DNA of 33,282 nucleotides, from positions 1 to 33,282 of IMG/VR virus record IMGVR_UViG_3300045988_114316, one strand, 5' to 3'. A program made the position numbers and the translations under genes. The number at the start of each line of letters is the position of its first letter. Position 1 is the first letter of the stretch. A model generated the notes under the pieces. The model made no database searches. It saw nothing but the letters and a program-made list of their open reading frames with translations, and had not been told where the DNA came from. This document shows, piece after piece, positions 3,145 through 28,428 of the stretch. Origin of the DNA: a virus.

Positions 3145-3945
3145 ATGAAGGTTATTCAGGAAACGTGCATAGCAGGAAGAACCATAGATCGAACGATAAA
3201 AATCACATCAGGAAACCATCGGTCGAAGCGTTCACCTAAAATAAACATCACACCAGAAAAAGTGCAAAAGAATAACGATCGCATCGCCGTAAAAAAATTA
3301 ATGCGATTGCTGAATGCAAATTTCACCGGTGGAGATTTACATATCGTGCTGACATACAAAGATGCGCCAGATCAGCTGCAGGCGAAAAAAGACCGTGAAA
3401 ATTTTTTAAAGGCTCTGCGGCGGAAGTTGAAAAAAAACGGAAAAGATCTGAAGTACATAGCCGTAACAGAATATAAGCACACCAGAATCCACCACCATAT
3501 CATTATTGGCGATTGTGACATTGCGTTAATTGAGGAAACCTGGAAAAAAGGATTTGTCAAATATTCGGTGTTAGATAACACGGGAAACTATGCTGATCTG
3601 GCCGCGTATCTGATCAAAGAAACGACGAAAACGATTCGGGAAGAAGGCAGCGTACAGAAAAAACGCTATTCTCGTAGCGCAAATCTAATTACTCCGATCG
3701 TCACAAAGCGGTATGTCGATGAATCGAAACTATGGGAAGATCCGGAGCCGATCAAAGGCTATTATATTGATCAAGACCACTGCAGGCGGTATGAGCACCC
3801 AGTAACCGGACTGGAACATTTGGAATACATCATGGTGGCAATAGACGAACCGCGAAAGATAAAACGATGGCCAGGGCAAAAGATAAGCGACAGCGAATAC
3901 TATAAAACGACATATGAGGAGGAACAAGAAAGCCTATGGATATAG
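3145..3945 (+). CDS. Rolling-circle replication initiator, HUH endonuclease superfamily (Rep_1/pC194-like motifs)
   Basis: Motif 1-like HIVLTYKD, HUH motif RIHHHIIIG, and catalytic Tyr motif-like ADLAAYLIKE in the canonical order. Confidence 0.6.
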   Translation: MKVIQETCIAGRTIDRTIKITSGNHRSKRSPKINITPEKVQKNNDRIAVKKLMRLLNANFTGGDLHIVLTYKDAPDQLQAKKDRENFLKALRRKLKKNGKDLKYIAVTEYKHTRIHHHIIIGDCDIALIEETWKKGFVKYSVLDNTGNYADLAAYLIKETTKTIREEGSVQKKRYSRSANLITPIVTKRYVDESKLWEDPEPIKGYYIDQDHCRRYEHPVTGLEHLEYIMVAIDEPRKIKRWPGQKISDSEYYKTTYEEEQESLWI

Positions 3946-21997: not shown

Positions 21998-22360
21998 ATG
22001 GAACAGATTTTCAACCTGATTTTGGACAATCTGATCGGGATAGCCTGTGCAGGACTTGCGGCCTACGCAGTGAAAACGCTATCACGCATTTTGAAAAACA
22101 TGCAGGGCGTGATGACAGCGGAAAAAGTGAACTGCAGGGAGAAGATTCGCCGGTTTGGCGAGTTTTACGTTACCACCAACCAGATCACCGTAGAAGAATA
22201 CGACGATCTGAAAGAAATCTATGATGCCTATCACGCGCTGGGAGGAAACGGGGCAATGACCGAACTGGTAGAACGCTGCAAGGATCTTCCTGTGGTACCG
22301 GTCAGAACGATCAGAAACCCGTACTACACGAATGAAAACGGGATAGAACCAGGGAAATAA
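21998..22360 (+). CDS. Hypothetical membrane-anchored protein (N-terminal TM; lysis-associated position)
   Basis: 120 aa; hydrophobic NLIGIACAGLAAYAV. Confidence 0.4.
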   Translation: MEQIFNLILDNLIGIACAGLAAYAVKTLSRILKNMQGVMTAEKVNCREKIRRFGEFYVTTNQITVEEYDDLKEIYDAYHALGGNGAMTELVERCKDLPVVPVRTIRNPYYTNENGIEPGK

Positions 22361-22426
22361 ATATGATATAATGGACAGGTCAAGAGAACATGGAAGCGGT
22401 TAGCCCCCTTGAAAGGGGGTGATGCA

Positions 22427-22498
22427 ATGAGTGATTATGAAGTGTTAATGATCGTATTAACAATACTGATTCTGATTGTATCCGTAAAAAATAAGTAA
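22427..22498 (+). CDS. Hol-Tox-like small hydrophobic peptide (23 aa, MSDYEVLMIVLTILILIVSVKNK)
   Basis: Y-E-x-L then a hydrophobic stretch then a KNK terminus, as in putative holin-like toxin peptides; RBS AGGGGGTG 5 nt upstream, embedded in a hairpin. Confidence 0.45.
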   Translation: MSDYEVLMIVLTILILIVSVKNK

Positions 22499-22620
22499 CC
22501 GCCCTCCTGTGCTAAAGTTGGCGGTTACATACAGCTAAAGTTGGCGACCGTTTTCAACGGTTTCCTCTTGACATTATATTAGCACACGAATAGAAAAAAA
22601 TCAATAAACAGATCAATTCA

Positions 22621-22645
22621 CCCTGCCACATCGGTAGGGTTTTTA
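22621..22645 (+). terminator. Intrinsic-terminator-like hairpin (CCCTGCC-acatc-GGTAGGG + T5) 20 nt upstream of the holin start
   Basis: Read directly; preceded by a TTGACA box at 22568-22573. Confidence 0.35.
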
Positions 22646-22664
22646 CGTGGAAAGGAGAAAAACA

Positions 22665-24072: not shown

Positions 24073-24507
24073 ATGGGTAAATATAGAGCTATGGATATTG
24101 CAAAATACGTGATTTCAAAATGCACAGAGGATAAAAAACCAATAACAAATTTACAGCTGCAAAAAATTCTGTTCTTTATTCAACGGGATTATTTGAAGGA
24201 AAATTCTTGTCCGCTTTTTTCAGATGATGTAGAAGCGTGGCAATTTGGCCCAGTAGTCGCCGATGTCTATTATGCCTTTTGCGGTATGGGATCGATGAAA
24301 ATTCTTGGTGAATATACTCCATCAACGAGCATTGAAAAAAATGATAGATGTTTTATAGATAAAATCGTCGAAGCAAAAAGAGAAAAATATCCGTGGGATC
24401 TCGTAAGAGAAAGTCATAAAAAAGACGGAGCTTGGGACACCATTTTTCAAAATGGAGAAGGAAATCATTGCATCATACCGATCAAACTAATAGCAGAAAG
24501 AGGATAA
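24073..24507 (+). CDS. Panacea-domain (DUF4065, SocA/PanA-like) protein
   Basis: ITNLQLQKILFFIQRDYLKENSCPLFSDDVEAWQFGPVVADVYYAF matches the DUF4065 core (...KLLY..q...l...g.plf.d.ieAw.yGPVv..vY). Confidence 0.65.
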   Translation: MGKYRAMDIAKYVISKCTEDKKPITNLQLQKILFFIQRDYLKENSCPLFSDDVEAWQFGPVVADVYYAFCGMGSMKILGEYTPSTSIEKNDRCFIDKIVEAKREKYPWDLVRESHKKDGAWDTIFQNGEGNHCIIPIKLIAERG

Positions 24508-24508
24508 C

Positions 24509-25309
24509 GTGTTTGAAAGCAGTGTAGTTAATGAAGATGAAAAAAGGCAGGCGCTAATTGAGCTTTTAAAGGAACTATCAATTCGTCAGGATATTCTTGA
24601 AAGTGGGGAAGAAAAGGAATATTTTCTTGCTAAGTTTCAAGAAGTATATAGCTATCCGAGTAGTGATGAACTGTATCGGCATTACTACTCGGATATTTTT
24701 GCCGTTATTTCGCAAATCGATCAAAAATTAATTGATGGAGATAAAGAGACTCTGTCACAAAATATGGAGTTGTTTAAAACATACTGTGAATTGCAATTTC
24801 AGGAGCAGAAAATATCCGATAACTTTTTAAAGGCTATTCGTAAATTATATGACCATGTAAATTTAGATGTTGCGAGATTAAACTACTTTTCCAAAATCAT
24901 GGAAACGTCAGAACAGAATTTAAAAGATATTGCTCCTAAGATAGATTCTTTACGTACTGAGCAAAAAGAAATACAGGCAAATATAGATGATGCTAAAAAG
25001 ATTGGAAGAGACTATATCACTATTTTAGGAATTTTTGCATCGATTGTATTGGCATTTACAGGAGGAATTGCTTTTTCTACTTCTGTATTAGAAAATATTA
25101 ATGCAGTTAGTCCAGTAAGACTTGCAGCAGTAATTATTGGACTGGCATTTGTTTTAATTAATGTCGTATATATACTAACTCGTTTTATCCAGGAAATAAA
25201 TAAAAGGAAAGAAGAAAAAATTAAAACACCGCTCTTTATTGTTGCTATTGATATAGTTTTGATCATAGCATCATTAATCATTTTTATTTACTATCTATAT
25301 ACAATTTAA
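24509..25309 (+). CDS. Membrane protein with an N-terminal helical cytoplasmic domain (~175 aa) and three C-terminal TM helices; candidate toxin/effector partner of the Panacea protein
   Basis: GTG start 1 nt after the upstream stop with RBS GAAAGAGGA; TM segments ITILGIFASIVLAFTGGIAF, LAAVIIGLAFVLINVVYIL and LFIVAIDIVLIIASLIIFIYYLY. Confidence 0.6.
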   Translation: MFESSVVNEDEKRQALIELLKELSIRQDILESGEEKEYFLAKFQEVYSYPSSDELYRHYYSDIFAVISQIDQKLIDGDKETLSQNMELFKTYCELQFQEQKISDNFLKAIRKLYDHVNLDVARLNYFSKIMETSEQNLKDIAPKIDSLRTEQKEIQANIDDAKKIGRDYITILGIFASIVLAFTGGIAFSTSVLENINAVSPVRLAAVIIGLAFVLINVVYILTRFIQEINKRKEEKIKTPLFIVAIDIVLIIASLIIFIYYLYTI

Positions 25310-25435: not shown

Positions 25436-25552
25436 ATGGGTAAACACGATAAAAGAAAAGAGCCGATAGACTTAAGAGACGTAGCAGTCCAGTCAATATC
25501 CGCTCTTGTGGTTGGAACCATATTACTACTTATCGACAAGTACATAATATGA
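25436..25552 (+). CDS. Small membrane peptide (38 aa, MGKHDKRKEPIDLRDVAVQSISALVVGTILLLIDKYII)
   Basis: RBS AAAGGAGG at 25417-25424; C-terminal TM segment; followed by a GGGGC-ttcg-GCCCC hairpin. Confidence 0.4.
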   Translation: MGKHDKRKEPIDLRDVAVQSISALVVGTILLLIDKYII

Positions 25553-26491: not shown

Positions 26492-27547
26492 TTAAACAAT
26501 GTTGACACGCGTATGGCACGGATCAGAAACATATTCATTCATTTTTTCTCTGGCAGATTCCATAGATTTTTCCGTGTGGTGCGTATAAATTTGCGCGGTA
26601 ACTTTTATGGACGAGTGACCCATCAAAACCTTAGCCACATTGATCGGGACACCGGCGTCCTGGAGATCCGTGCAAAACGTATGCCTTAAACAATATGGAA
26701 CCAGATCTGGAGATACTGAGAAAGGGTGCTCTTCCTCCATGCTTTTTTTGAATGACTTCCAGCTTTTTTGAAATGTACTATTCGTGAATCTTTTACCTCT
26801 GGGTGTCGTAAAAACCGGCTCAAATGGTTTCAGATCGAGTTTTCTCAATTCCTTTGCGTAAACATCTACTATAGGTACTTTCCTGACACCTGCAGAGGTT
26901 TTTGGAGCCTTTTTATTTCCGTTGTAATCGATGTTAGAGCGTACATAGACCAGATTATTCTTTAAATCTATGTCACGGCCTTCGAGGGCGGCGACCTCCA
27001 TAGTTCTCAAACCACAAAAAAGCATCATTTTGAGGTACATTCCCAACGGGTGGTGATCTGATACCTCTAATATGATTCTTCGCTCAGAATCGCTTATAGA
27101 GCGCCTTGAAATGTGCTCACTGACCATTGGGCGTTTAATGTTTTTTACAGGATTGGCACGAATAAGATCGTTGTCTGCAGCGGTTTCAAAAAAGGATTTA
27201 ACCACTGCCAAATATTTGCTATATGTGATCTGAGACAACCCGCTCAACGAGTTTGCCCAGATCTGCACGTTTTTCTGCGCGATCTTGTTGAGGGGGAAAT
27301 TTCCATACATACTGCAAAATGAATTTAAGATGCAGTGAATATTTTTGTTCCATTTTCCGTTTATAGCGGGCCTGAATGTTTCAGGCCATTCTTTTGCCCA
27401 TTGCGAACAGGTTATATTTTTTCGGATAATAAGAACATTTTCGTCAATATCGCGGATTTTCAAAGCCTTTTTTACTTCAAAGTCCTTTTCGTCTTTTGCC
27501 CTAATGAAATACCGCTGTCTCTCATACGTAAAAGATTTCCTTATCAT
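26492..27547 (-). CDS. int: Tyrosine-type integrase (site-specific recombinase)
   Basis: C-terminal LRHTFCTDL...LMGHSSIKVTAQIYTH (R, HxxR and Y catalytic motifs). The start is set at the second ATG (MIRKSF), which is preceded by AAGGAGGA; the first ATG at 27571 has no RBS. Confidence 0.9.
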   Translation of the reverse strand: MIRKSFTYERQRYFIRAKDEKDFEVKKALKIRDIDENVLIIRKNITCSQWAKEWPETFRPAINGKWNKNIHCILNSFCSMYGNFPLNKIAQKNVQIWANSLSGLSQITYSKYLAVVKSFFETAADNDLIRANPVKNIKRPMVSEHISRRSISDSERRIILEVSDHHPLGMYLKMMLFCGLRTMEVAALEGRDIDLKNNLVYVRSNIDYNGNKKAPKTSAGVRKVPIVDVYAKELRKLDLKPFEPVFTTPRGKRFTNSTFQKSWKSFKKSMEEEHPFSVSPDLVPYCLRHTFCTDLQDAGVPINVAKVLMGHSSIKVTAQIYTHHTEKSMESAREKMNEYVSDPCHTRVNIV

Positions 27548-27582
27548 GATATCCTCCTTTCTGTCTCTCATTTTGTAAAATT

Positions 27583-27604
27583 ATGCCTCCTGAATTACCA
27601 GGAG
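27583..27604 (-). terminator. Hairpin GCCTCCTG-aattac-CAGGAGGC between the Ltp-like gene and int
   Basis: Read directly; weak U tail on the minus strand. Confidence 0.3.
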
Positions 27605-27734
27605 GCGGATAAATGAATTACGTCATTGATGGTAGCTGTGCTTTTGTTAACATTTCCACAAACTGTAAAACATAAAATCAAAGCAGCAATCTTTGTAAAA
27701 ACTTAATATGTTTTTTTATCTATTTCCTCCTTCA

Positions 27735-28253
27735 TTAATAACCTACTTGAGATACTCCATATTCAGCTTGATCTTGTGTGAATCCCTCGTATAATAGTTG
27801 TTCGATCAATCCTTCACGGGAAAATGAAGAGGTATCAAGGTATTCTTGTGCTTTTTTAGCCGCTTGTTCTTTCCAGTTAGCCCCGCAGTTGTCAACTGCG
27901 TAAGTCGCTTCTTCTGTTGTATAGCCTTCATATTCTAACTGATCGATTAAACCGGTTCTCGAAAATGACATTAAACTCAAATAACTTTGCGCTTGATCTA
28001 ATGCGTTCTGTTCTCCTATGGTAGCATCATTTTCATTATCAGAAGCTTTCGTGTTGTTTTGAGTCTCAGTGTTTTCCTCAGTAACTATTTGATCATTATC
28101 TTTTGGTGCAGTTGTTGTTTCGTCATCGCCTCCAGACATTGCACCAATTATTCCGATAACGAGAATAACGACAATGACAATAAACCACCATTTCTTATAA
28201 AACGGTTTTTTCACTGGGGGGGTAACGTTACTTGAGTTCATTTCTTTCTTCAT
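27735..28253 (-). CDS. Ltp-family superinfection-exclusion protein (two Ltp repeats, N-terminal membrane anchor)
   Basis: Two copies of the A...A..YL....FSR.GLI.QL.YEGFT..EA.YAVD motif. The start is set at the second ATG (MKKEMNSS), which is preceded by AAAGGAG. Confidence 0.8.
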   Translation of the reverse strand: MKKEMNSSNVTPPVKKPFYKKWWFIVIVVILVIGIIGAMSGGDDETTTAPKDNDQIVTEENTETQNNTKASDNENDATIGEQNALDQAQSYLSLMSFSRTGLIDQLEYEGYTTEEATYAVDNCGANWKEQAAKKAQEYLDTSSFSREGLIEQLLYEGFTQDQAEYGVSQVGY

Positions 28254-28428
28254 TTTTCTTTCTCCTTTTTTTCTTTTTATTAAAACGGTCAAGCCGAATT
28301 AATCTATATAAATATTGTTTTTGATAGAAAGATTTATTCGCAATAGCTTAAAAACACAAATGTTCGATAATGGTTATATTTTTAGCACCCCTCTCGAACG
28401 GACTCTCGAAGTATACAAAGAATTGCTA

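Follow-up and report, generated by a model that had tools for sequence, protein, structure and literature searches.

The 33,282-nucleotide (nt) viral sequence analysed here (IMG/VR record IMGVR_UViG_3300045988_114316, referred to at its full length as the window) carries, between its tail-fibre genes and its holin gene, a small hydrophobic open reading frame (ORF) whose Shine-Dalgarno (SD) sequence is locked in a hairpin. The ORF is only one part of a larger, self-contained cassette of ~280 nt at 22344-22646. Judged from its sequence, this cassette is likely to be a BsrG/SR4-like type I toxin-antitoxin system of the TxpA/BsrG/SprG ('holin-like toxin') superfamily, carried as an accessory gene in a temperate prophage of a gut Clostridia host, probably Emergencia (Anaerovoracaceae). 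It is an unusually short and compact member of the BsrG/'holin-like toxin' kind. That the small ORF and its SD hairpin are real and beyond chance is confirmed by the fold of the transcript (z = -6.9), the match to the Rfam BsrG model, the rank of the peptide in a profile search and the retention of the arrangement in relatives. The same evidence supports a Hol-Tox/BsrG-like type I toxin peptide with a hairpin-locked SD. The ORF, its SD hairpin, the promoter and terminator signals, the helices, their conservation and the family likeness can be read from the sequence, whereas we infer the production of both RNAs, the mechanism of decay and translation, the toxicity and the role.

The reading frame and its cassette

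A first-pass annotation of the window had singled out the ORF at 22427-22498 as encoding a hydrophobic peptide of 23 amino acids (aa), with its SD forming the 3' arm of a hairpin, between the tail module and the holin and endolysin genes. The sequence bears out each of these points. On the + strand the ORF runs from the ATG at 22427 to the TAA at 22496-22498 and encodes MSDYEVLMIVLTILILIVSVKNK (23 aa); it lies 167 nt upstream of a Phage_holin_1 holin gene (ATG 22665) on the same strand, which is followed by a GH25 endolysin gene. There are 253 ORFs of 20-40 aa in the six frames of the window, and such ORFs are hence common; the 23-aa peptide, with a grand average of hydropathy (GRAVY) of 1.39, ranks in the top 3% of small ORFs for hydrophobicity. 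Its SD, GAAAGGGGGTGAT (22411-22423), is spaced 3 nt from ATG 22427, and agrees at 12 of 13 positions with the complement of the Firmicute anti-SD by our own reading; the 33-kb window has just two other GG[AG]GGTGAT sites. The SD hairpin, SL1, pairs GCCCCCU (22403-22409) with AGGGGGU (22414-22420), its 3' arm being part of the SD, and the predicted probability that the SD is unpaired in this version of the cassette (allele A) is 0.03. The stem had been drawn earlier with 8 base pairs (bp) and a 2-nt loop, which is sterically unrealistic; the realistic form has 7 bp, including one G-U pair, and a 4-nt UGAA loop (-13.7 kcal/mol). Taken alone, this short hairpin is modestly unusual (z = -2.4; 4/200 shuffles fold as well). 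An alternative TTG start at 22409 (29 aa, MKGGDA...) was rejected, as it sits in the SL1 loop and has no SD.

The elements of the cassette, most of them predicted, are as follows:

22344-22372, + strand: toxin promoter, with -35 TAGAAC at 22344-22349, extended -10 TGaTATAAT at 22364-22372 and a predicted start at ~22379
22379-22401, + strand: 5' strand of helix P1, seen in the minimum-free-energy folds of alleles A and B alike; equivalent to the outer helix of Rfam BsrG
22403-22420, + strand: SL1, the SD hairpin, GCCCCCU-UGAA-AGGGGGU; near-identical in SPbeta-type bsrG and in locus L001
22421-22482, + strand: SL2, a long hairpin in the predicted fold, holding the start region and most of the ORF
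22427-22498, + strand: toxin ORF, 23 aa, MSDYEVLMIVLTILILIVSVKNK
22486-22569, - strand: predicted antisense RNA of ~84 nt, bounded by promoter and terminator predictions
22495-22528, no strand assigned: SL3, the stop-codon hairpin, GUAACCGCC...GGCGGUUAC, next to a minus-strand U-run at 22494-22486
22545-22572, + strand: 3' strand of helix P1, GACCGUUUUCAACGGUUUCCUCUUGAC; a near-invariant block that templates the antisense RNA 5' end
22576-22604, - strand: antisense promoter, with -35 TTGATT at 22604-22599, a 17-nt spacer, TGc plus -10 TAATAT at 22584-22576 and a predicted start at ~22569
22620-22645, + strand: intrinsic terminator, ACCCUGCC-loop-GGUAGGGU followed by UUUUU, ~10 nt before the holin ribosome-binding site GGAAAGGAGAA

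The 268-nt toxin transcript is predicted to fold at -88.6 kcal/mol, with a z-score of -6.9 against dinucleotide shuffles, none of which (0/200) folds as well. Its 5' and 3' ends are joined by the long helix P1, which contains an exact inverted repeat (GTCAAGAG/CTCTTGAC). RNAalifold retains 20 P1 pairs in seven of seven sequences, except for one A-C mismatch in the window sequence, and the changes among these sequences are one-sided and wobble-compatible; in SL3 nine of nine pairs are retained, with one compensatory A-U/G-C change. The terminator stem is conserved in all relatives while its loops vary. The modelled mRNA has the bsrG-type architecture: P1 joins its ends, SL1 holds the SD, the start codon is at the foot of SL2 and SL3 takes in the stop codon with its 5' part. 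The earlier suggestion that SD sequestration is of the sort typical of type I toxins is supported by this predicted P1/SL1/SL2/SL3 match to the probed bsrG mRNA (PMC3834814).

Family searches point the same way. A permissive Rfam scan placed RF01412 (BsrG) on 22380-22596 of the + strand, covering model positions 1-259 of 259 at 34.1 bits (E ~1e-6 for a ~400-base search), with SL1 and the SD, the ATG and the first codons as the best-aligned stretch; at gathering scores Rfam gave no match anywhere in the window. As a control, L001, a locus found by an IMG/VR pattern search, scored 105.4 bits with RF01412, and its peptide MSVFETLMIMFAFGTFIISLIGLIVKLTKK scored 50.9 bits with Pfam Hol_Tox. Two further pattern scans yielded 13 BsrG-like mini-ORFs of 27-43 aa from viral contigs, whose Hol_Tox scores run from 43 bits (43.3 for L115) down to a sub-threshold 19.7 (L114) and 16.4 (L117). 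A profile of 12 phage peptides, made of 11 of these 13 mini-ORFs (L103 and L125 were left out) and one SPbeta-type copy, was searched against the 1,139 small ORFs of the window, taking every start codon in six frames; it ranked the window ORF first (E = 2.3e-5, 20.6 bits). The window ORF also corresponds codon for codon to SPbeta-type bsrG and to L001, the peptides having in common the pattern M-[ST]-x-[YF]-E-x-L-M-[IL]-[VM] followed by a basic tail. The combination of a small hydrophobic peptide, the N-terminal motif of the family and a basic C-terminal tail is found in allele A and not in allele B. By our count the window peptide is ~50% identical to that of L114. BLASTP gave no alignment between the window peptide and the BsrG-like peptide of phage SPbetaL8, which we attribute to both sequences being short and hydrophobic, and tblastn of the 23-aa peptide against phages gave no match. 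What stands of the Hol-Tox-like type I toxin peptide proposed in the first-pass annotation is therefore a family resemblance, carried by the full-length Rfam BsrG match, the profile and the codon alignment; formal Pfam Hol_Tox membership does not stand, and we use 'like' because the peptide fails that model.

The toxin promoter has the best + strand score in 8/8 allele variants and is invariant in the alignment of relatives; the Rfam BsrG match begins at 22380, one base past the predicted transcription start at ~22379. A minus-strand promoter at 22604-22576 faces the ORF in convergent orientation, with the best minus-strand score in every variant (8/8), and it is kept in four sequence versions (TTGATT..TGcTAATAT, TTGCAT..TGtTATAGT, TTGATT..TGtTAATAT and TTGATT..TGaTAGTAT). 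On the minus strand SL3 is followed by a U-run (to 22486), and we therefore take it as the predicted terminator of an antisense RNA. This RNA, ~84 nt long, would consist of a 5' hairpin, a single-stranded spacer and the terminator hairpin with its U-run (-27.9 kcal/mol, z = -3.3). Its predicted complementarity is complete over the final ~13 nt of the ORF, which contain the stop codon, and over the 3' untranslated region (UTR) of the toxin mRNA, including the 3' strand of P1. Convergent antisense signals overlapping the 3' part of the toxin mRNA, a membership feature of such systems, are thus predicted for the cassette. An antisense RNA had been suggested earlier as something to look for across 22400-22500; one is indeed predicted, but it spans 22486-22569, the ORF 3' end and the 3' UTR.

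Several further features touch the antisense region. A second terminator-like hairpin on the minus strand, at 22392-22408 (GGGGGCUAACCGCUUCC followed by a U-rich tail), could end transcripts that read through SL3, giving a form of ~185 nt, close to SR4 in length, that would span the SD as well as the entire ORF. The Rfam model ctRNA_pT181 coincides with the predicted antisense RNA (minus strand 22579-22480), at a score that is not significant (21.5 bits, E = 2). A minus-strand promoter-like site within the ORF (22463-22434) was rejected as the antitoxin promoter, since allele B does not retain it. Allele A alone has an exact 13-nt direct repeat, GCTAAAGTTGGCG, at 22511-22523 and 22534-22546, 23 nt apart; one copy forms the SL3 loop and 3' arm, the other a small hairpin beside P1, and the antisense RNA accordingly carries two CGCCAACUUUAGC motifs. 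The cassette is also bounded by an imperfect inverted repeat of ~26 nt (22366-22386 versus 22565-22579), seen likewise in L041 and L103, which takes in the -10 box and the initial ~10 transcribed bases of each RNA; toxin mRNA and antisense RNA would accordingly start alike (GUCAAGAGGA...). We rejected a small mobile element with terminal inverted repeats as its explanation: the repeat amounts to P1 plus the mirrored promoters, and the L103 sequence differs.

Two alleles in related gut prophages

The exact 120-aa protein encoded upstream of the cassette occurs on many human-gut contigs, ten of which were fetched. The identical upstream gene is present at eleven loci, and L052 and L041 are two more copies; L041 comes from the metagenome-assembled genome of an uncultured Emergencia (Anaerovoracaceae, Clostridia). 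Gene callers left the intergenic ORF uncalled in 10/10 related contigs. These near-identical prophages carry two cassette alleles within the same flanks, and both promoters are kept. Allele A is that of the window, L007, L009, L011 and L089, and its sole ORF change is synonymous (TCC to TCT). Allele B (L003-L006, L008, L010, L012, L041 and L052) has an ORF of 22 aa, MTEYIFDVIYLLILYRVVREIK or MIEYIMNVIYLLILYRIVREIK, with the pattern M[TI]EYI[FM][DN]VIYLLILYR[VI]VREIK. Its SD retains the GGTGAT of allele A and its ORF ends at the same TAA within SL3; its SD hairpin differs, being longer and nested, with CCUUCC pairing to the SD GGAAGG. The predicted fold of allele B shows the same architecture (z = -6.9), with an SD unpaired probability of ~0.4-0.5. 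Conservation in related phages had been named as a check on the ORF, and the outcome is divided: the arrangement is kept and the allele A peptide is unchanged among the allele A copies, whereas allele B encodes a different, 22-aa peptide.

Alleles A and B2 accompany the same holin/GH25 pair, and B1 accompanies another holin and an Amidase_3 endolysin. More distant relatives, with a 120-aa homologue that is 45-76% identical (L044-L051), have no intergenic cassette and carry another lysis module, made of a 92-aa gene, a Phage_holin_6_1 holin and an M15 peptidase endolysin. Lysis module and cassette are exchanged as blocks.

Other searches for relatives returned little. Nothing was found by nhmmer with the cassette alignment upstream of 28 IMG/VR holin homologues (L013-L040), and the GenBank phage collection had no match to a 2.5 kb query for near relatives or to the 321-nt cassette for distant ones. 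An IMG/VR search with the 120-aa neighbour protein returned no relatives, and one with the invariant 19-mer CGGTTTCCTCTTGACATTA gave no match. In species genomes the 19-mer has one true match (L041) and two chance matches; its 38 matches in metagenomes (L053-L090) lie in unrelated sequence except for L089. In some 35 contigs it recurs in an intergenic promoter region of an unrelated high-GC human-gut bacterium, which we rejected as a related cassette and regard as a chance coincidence.

Proposed mechanism, role and alternatives

In the mechanism that we propose, a constitutive-type, TG-extended promoter would produce an mRNA of ~265 nt (~22379-22645) for a 23-aa membrane-active peptide. This mRNA would be nearly untranslatable, with its SD locked in SL1, its AUG at the base of the ORF hairpin and its ends paired in P1. 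The convergent promoter within the 3' UTR would give rise to the ~84-nt antisense RNA, perfectly complementary to the last codons, SL3 and the P1 3' strand, and pairing of the two RNAs over ~80 nt would create a long duplex open to RNase III-type decay, by analogy with SR4. Pairing would also displace the 5' leader from P1, and it is predicted to tighten SD sequestration in allele B and in L103. In silico, masking of the antisense target reduced the predicted exposure of the SD both in allele B (0.50 to 0.18) and in L103 (0.32 to 0.17), a result that mirrors the SR4-induced extension of the bsrG SD helix from 4 to 8 bp. Were the antisense supply to drop while the mRNA persists, the peptide would be made and the envelope damaged. 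By analogy, the 23-aa peptide may act at the membrane as does BsrG, which inserts without forming pores and causes invaginations, delocalised cell-wall synthesis and finally lysis (PMC6562991). The role of an addiction peptide, one of those raised in the first-pass annotation, is in keeping with the toxin-antitoxin reading. The cassette is also accessory, in that relatives at 45-76% identity are without a copy and its neighbours are a Panacea toxin-antitoxin pair, an Ltp lipoprotein and an integrase.

A number of observations weigh against a BsrG-like toxin-antitoxin cassette. The RF01412 score of 34.1 bits lies below the gathering score of 55 bits, Pfam PF16935 Hol_Tox (gathering score 23.3 bits) has no match at E <= 10 to the 23-aa or the 29-aa version of the peptide, and NCBIfam is likewise without a match to the window peptide. 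The pattern used to retrieve the profile peptides was partly designed from the window sequence. Allele B (L041) matches neither the Rfam BsrG model nor the peptide profile, and its peptide is moderately hydrophobic (GRAVY 0.85-1.06, with one D and two or three R in 22 aa), which makes its toxicity doubtful. In the 22-23-aa peptides the hydrophobic stretch, at ~15-17 residues, is short for a membrane-spanning helix. The SD of allele A is predicted to be closed with or without the antisense RNA bound, so that a translational switch is not arguable from allele A. Every promoter, terminator and structure call is a prediction, and the covariation comes from two alleles and a few independent lineages in a shallow alignment. 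Finally, the B1 and B2 ORFs differ by four amino-acid changes and one synonymous change within nearly invariant flanking RNA; these changes lie in hairpin loops or remain wobble-compatible, and the RNA structure seems at least as constrained as the peptide.

Such a pattern would also fit a non-coding RNA element in which the ORF is incidental. The structured RNA/antisense pair would then insulate or regulate transcription between the tail operon and the lysis genes, acting via the terminator, convergent-promoter interference and RNase III processing of the late mRNA. The helices and promoters are indeed more conserved than the peptide, the allele B peptide is weakly hydrophobic, the allele A SD is almost wholly closed and a conserved terminator stands directly before the holin. 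We nevertheless consider this explanation highly improbable. A near-consensus SD at 3-nt spacing is kept in three unrelated versions (alleles A, B and L103), the ORF always ends at the TAA in SL3, and the allele A peptide, whose sole ORF change is synonymous, is found by the BsrG-family profile and aligns with bsrG codon by codon. The bsrG mRNA is equally refractory to translation in vitro, yet it encodes a proven toxin (PMC3834814).

The ORF precedes the holin by 167 nt and shares its strand, which raises the alternative of a lysis accessory factor, antiholin-like, holin-assisting or timing lysis, that would be made from late read-through transcripts and act with the Phage_holin_1 holin. A related cassette sits at the tail-holin junction of Staphylococcus aureus phages, BsrG action itself ends in cell lysis by way of membrane invaginations and delocalised cell-wall synthesis (PMC6562991), and late transcripts have to traverse the cassette before they reach the holin. 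The cassette, however, is served by a promoter of its own and by a convergent antisense promoter, and a conserved terminator stands ahead of the holin. Alleles are exchanged without regard to the lysis genes (A and B2 with the holin and GH25, B1 with another holin and Amidase_3), and homologues of the same architecture lie in tail (L103, L117) and lysogeny (L114) modules. No cassette was detected by nhmmer at the holin relatives L013-L040, and there is none in the distant relatives with a Phage_holin_6_1 lysis module. The sequence comparisons speak against expression as part of the lysis cassette and against co-inheritance with holin and endolysin, which mark a holin or antiholin. A lysis accessory factor is therefore very unlikely, and the antiholin or lysis-timing role put forward in the first-pass annotation finds no support.

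No promoter was seen between the terminator at 22620-22645 and the holin ribosome-binding site (22620-22664), so that late transcription must cross both the terminator and the convergent antisense promoter to reach the holin and endolysin genes. A + strand site, TTGACA-17-TAGAAA (22568-22596), was considered as a holin promoter and rejected, as its -10 is lost in L041, L004 and L008 and the terminator lies downstream; unlike the convergent promoters, this competing site is not kept across variants. A terminator before the next late gene is also seen in L103 and L117 and, by eye, before the holin in S. aureus phages. Returning to the toxin-antitoxin cassette, it is tempting to speculate that it is more than a passive addiction module, through specificity types, a gate on the lysis genes, or both, although we think this rather unlikely. 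As a gate, the terminator and convergent promoter ahead of the holin could keep transcription in the lysogen from passing them, and the holin mRNA could depend on antitermination or RNase III processing in lytic growth. Reuse of the tail-holin slot by SprG/SprF-like cassettes of S. aureus hints at a selected position rather than an accident. As to specificity, toxin ORF, SD hairpin, SL3 loop and antisense spacer all vary between the alleles, and these would include the first-contact parts of the RNA pair. With stems and promoters conserved, this pattern would fit diversifying 'specificity types'; if so, related co-resident or competing prophages would be spared cross-neutralisation of their toxins.

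The same toxin-antitoxin mechanism might also serve defence, that is, abortive infection against superinfecting phages, instead of prophage stabilisation, with shut-off of host or prophage transcription depleting a labile antisense RNA as the trigger. The cassette belongs to an accessory cluster of the sort typical of prophage defence and exclusion (SocA/Panacea antitoxin and membrane partner at 24073-25309, Ltp-type lipoprotein at 27735-28292), and allele diversity within identical flanks would fit selection for non-cross-reacting specificities. No sequence feature separates defence from maintenance, however, and the characterised prophage type I systems of B. subtilis and C. difficile are credited with stabilising their element (PMC6563280). 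We regard a defence role as possible but unlikely; on the preferred reading as a toxin-antitoxin cassette, the role could be prophage maintenance or defence against other phages.

The wider window is that of a temperate tailed phage, with terminase, portal, capsid, tape measure, tail fibres and lysis genes followed by accessory genes, and the cassette occupies the slot that separates the tail-fibre genes from the holin. Immediately past the endolysin, the 24073-25309 region encodes a SocA/Panacea-domain antitoxin (144 aa, Pfam 59 bits) and an overlapping 266-aa gene product with three hydrophobic C-terminal segments and no Pfam match; the two are probably a PanA-type toxin-antitoxin pair. In related phages this position is taken by other cargo (a PemK toxin, other small genes). 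A 38-aa ORF at 25436-25552 (MGKHDKRKEPIDLRDVAVQSISALVVGTILLLIDKYII), with a charged N-terminus, a hydrophobic C-terminus and no Pfam or NCBIfam match, may specify a small membrane protein that belongs to the lysogeny region. Six related contigs also have an annotated gene of 38 aa, which in several of them immediately precedes an HTH_3 regulator, without identity to the window ORF being implied. The minus strand of 26492-28292 encodes an integrase (26492-27571) and an Ltp-type surface lipoprotein (27735-28292, Pfam 115 bits). Lipoproteins of the Ltp type are typical of superinfection exclusion, and together with the integrase this gene confirms a temperate phage with an accessory gene cluster. 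Elsewhere, an ORF at 3145-3945 carries a REP_ORF2-G2P replication-initiator domain (Pfam 59 bits), and DUF6273 occurs in several tail-fibre ORFs of the window and its relatives.

Such a cassette would extend the BsrG/'holin-like toxin' type I family into prophages of human-gut Clostridia, where it has been missed by gene callers, Pfam and Rfam. Annotation could gain from scanning the intergenic gaps of Firmicute prophages for mini-ORFs with an SD in a hairpin. The natural allele swaps and independent homologues would make a comparative set for studying the SD-hairpin/P1 switch and the evolution of antitoxin specificity, and the recurrent placement at the tail-lysis junction raises the question of how temperate phages insulate their lysis genes.

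Comparison with known systems

The closest known counterpart is bsrG/SR4 of the B. subtilis prophage SPbeta (RF01412, PF16935). In the probed bsrG mRNA there is a P1 helix, the SD is held in the 4-bp stem of SL1, and translation starts at the base of SL2 and ends within the 5' part of SL3; SR4 (~180 nt) is complementary to its 3' end, triggers RNase III-dependent decay and lengthens the SD helix from 4 to 8 bp (PMC3834814). The window cassette shares with this system its place on a prophage, a small hydrophobic peptide of the form M-[ST]-x-[YF]-[EQ]-x-L-M with a basic tail, an almost identical SL1/SD sequence (CCCCU..GAAAGGGGGUGAUGC..AUG), and the series P1, SL1, SL2 and SL3 with its stop codon. 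It would further share a convergent antisense RNA directed to the mRNA 3' part, whose binding is predicted to tighten SD sequestration. It differs in the length of the peptide (23 aa against 38 aa for BsrG and 27-43 aa in other phage copies), in scoring below the Rfam and Pfam thresholds, and in its host, a Clostridia gut anaerobe and not Bacillus. Its antisense promoter is placed within the 3' UTR of the toxin mRNA, right behind P1 and ahead of the terminator, which would yield an RNA of ~84 nt. Misannotation of such loci is seen in the Bacillus phage SPbetaL8 (L113; OQ921348.1, locus 382-495), where the annotated coding sequence WIT28162.1 (MKGGDANVNISG...) starts inside the SD hairpin in the wrong frame and the BsrG-like ORF MSTFQALMLMLAFGSFIIALLTYINKK lies in another; WIT28162.1 and the TTG ORF at 22409 of the window yield the same 'MKGGDA' artefact.

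The S. aureus phages phiPV83 and StauST398-4 offer a parallel in position. Between their last tail gene and the holin they carry a Hol_Tox/PepG1-like ORF, with an rli28-family RNA (87-89 bits) and a convergent RatA-like RNA (44-50 bits, threshold 49) in the same slot. These SprG/SprF-type cassettes resemble that of the window in occupying the tail-holin slot on the late-gene strand, with a convergent small RNA just downstream, a terminator-like hairpin before the holin start (by eye) and a Hol_Tox/PepG1-type peptide. Their peptides are longer (~30 aa or more) and they pass the rli28 threshold, whereas the window reaches 25.8 bits with rli28 (gathering score 45, E = 0.25) and gives no minus-strand match to RatA.

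Among Clostridia, the type I modules CD0956.2/RCd10 and CD0977.1/RCd11 of C. difficile prophages have been proposed to stabilise their prophages (PMC6563280). They too are prophage-borne and pair a small hydrophobic toxin that has a charged C-terminus with an antisense RNA. Their sequences are unrelated to the window cassette, their toxins are 34-59 aa long, and some of the modules are linked to clustered regularly interspaced short palindromic repeat (CRISPR) arrays or cyclic di-GMP riboswitches. For B. subtilis, type I toxins are quoted as 28-60 aa (PMC6563280); the 22-23-aa toxins considered here are shorter.

The closest likeness in layout comes from four independent homologues in IMG/VR, L103, L114, L117 and L126, which share the arrangement of the window cassette with unrelated P1 sequences and for which we found no description in the literature searched. 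L103 encodes MSDYEMIMVTLAIIGLLFTAIKLKDKR and lies in a tail module, upstream of the tape-measure gene. It combines a TGgTATAAT promoter, a P1 helix of its own (GCAGGGAGA/UCUCCCUGC), CCUCC/GGAGG anti-SD pairing, a stop-proximal bidirectional hairpin, a perfect minus-strand TTGACA-17-TATAAT directly after P1 and a + strand terminator before the next gene (fold z = -6.65), and it has no match to Rfam BsrG. In L117, between a tail structural gene and a tail assembly chaperone gene, the stop codon lies in the hairpin AUAACCGCC...GCGGUUAU and a + strand terminator again precedes the next late gene. L114 lies between a cI-like repressor and an integrase gene, in the lysogeny module, and L126 adjoins a PemK-like gene; these placements in tail and lysogeny modules indicate that the cassette is not tied to holins in general. 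L114, L117 and L126 all have strong predicted antisense promoters at the position equivalent to that of the window. Like the window cassette, the four loci place the antisense promoter immediately past the P1 3' strand and encode peptides that read MS[DT]YE..M..; they differ from it in peptide length (27-36 aa), genome position and, outside the SD region, nucleotide sequence. In the classical Bacillus-type copies (L001, L113, L115, L116 and L128) the best antisense promoter lies beyond the terminator. Sequence comparison thus points to a compact sub-architecture, in which the antisense promoter sits between P1 and the mRNA terminator, and the window would represent a form of it with a 22-23-aa toxin and an antisense RNA of ~84 nt that starts within the toxin 3' UTR.

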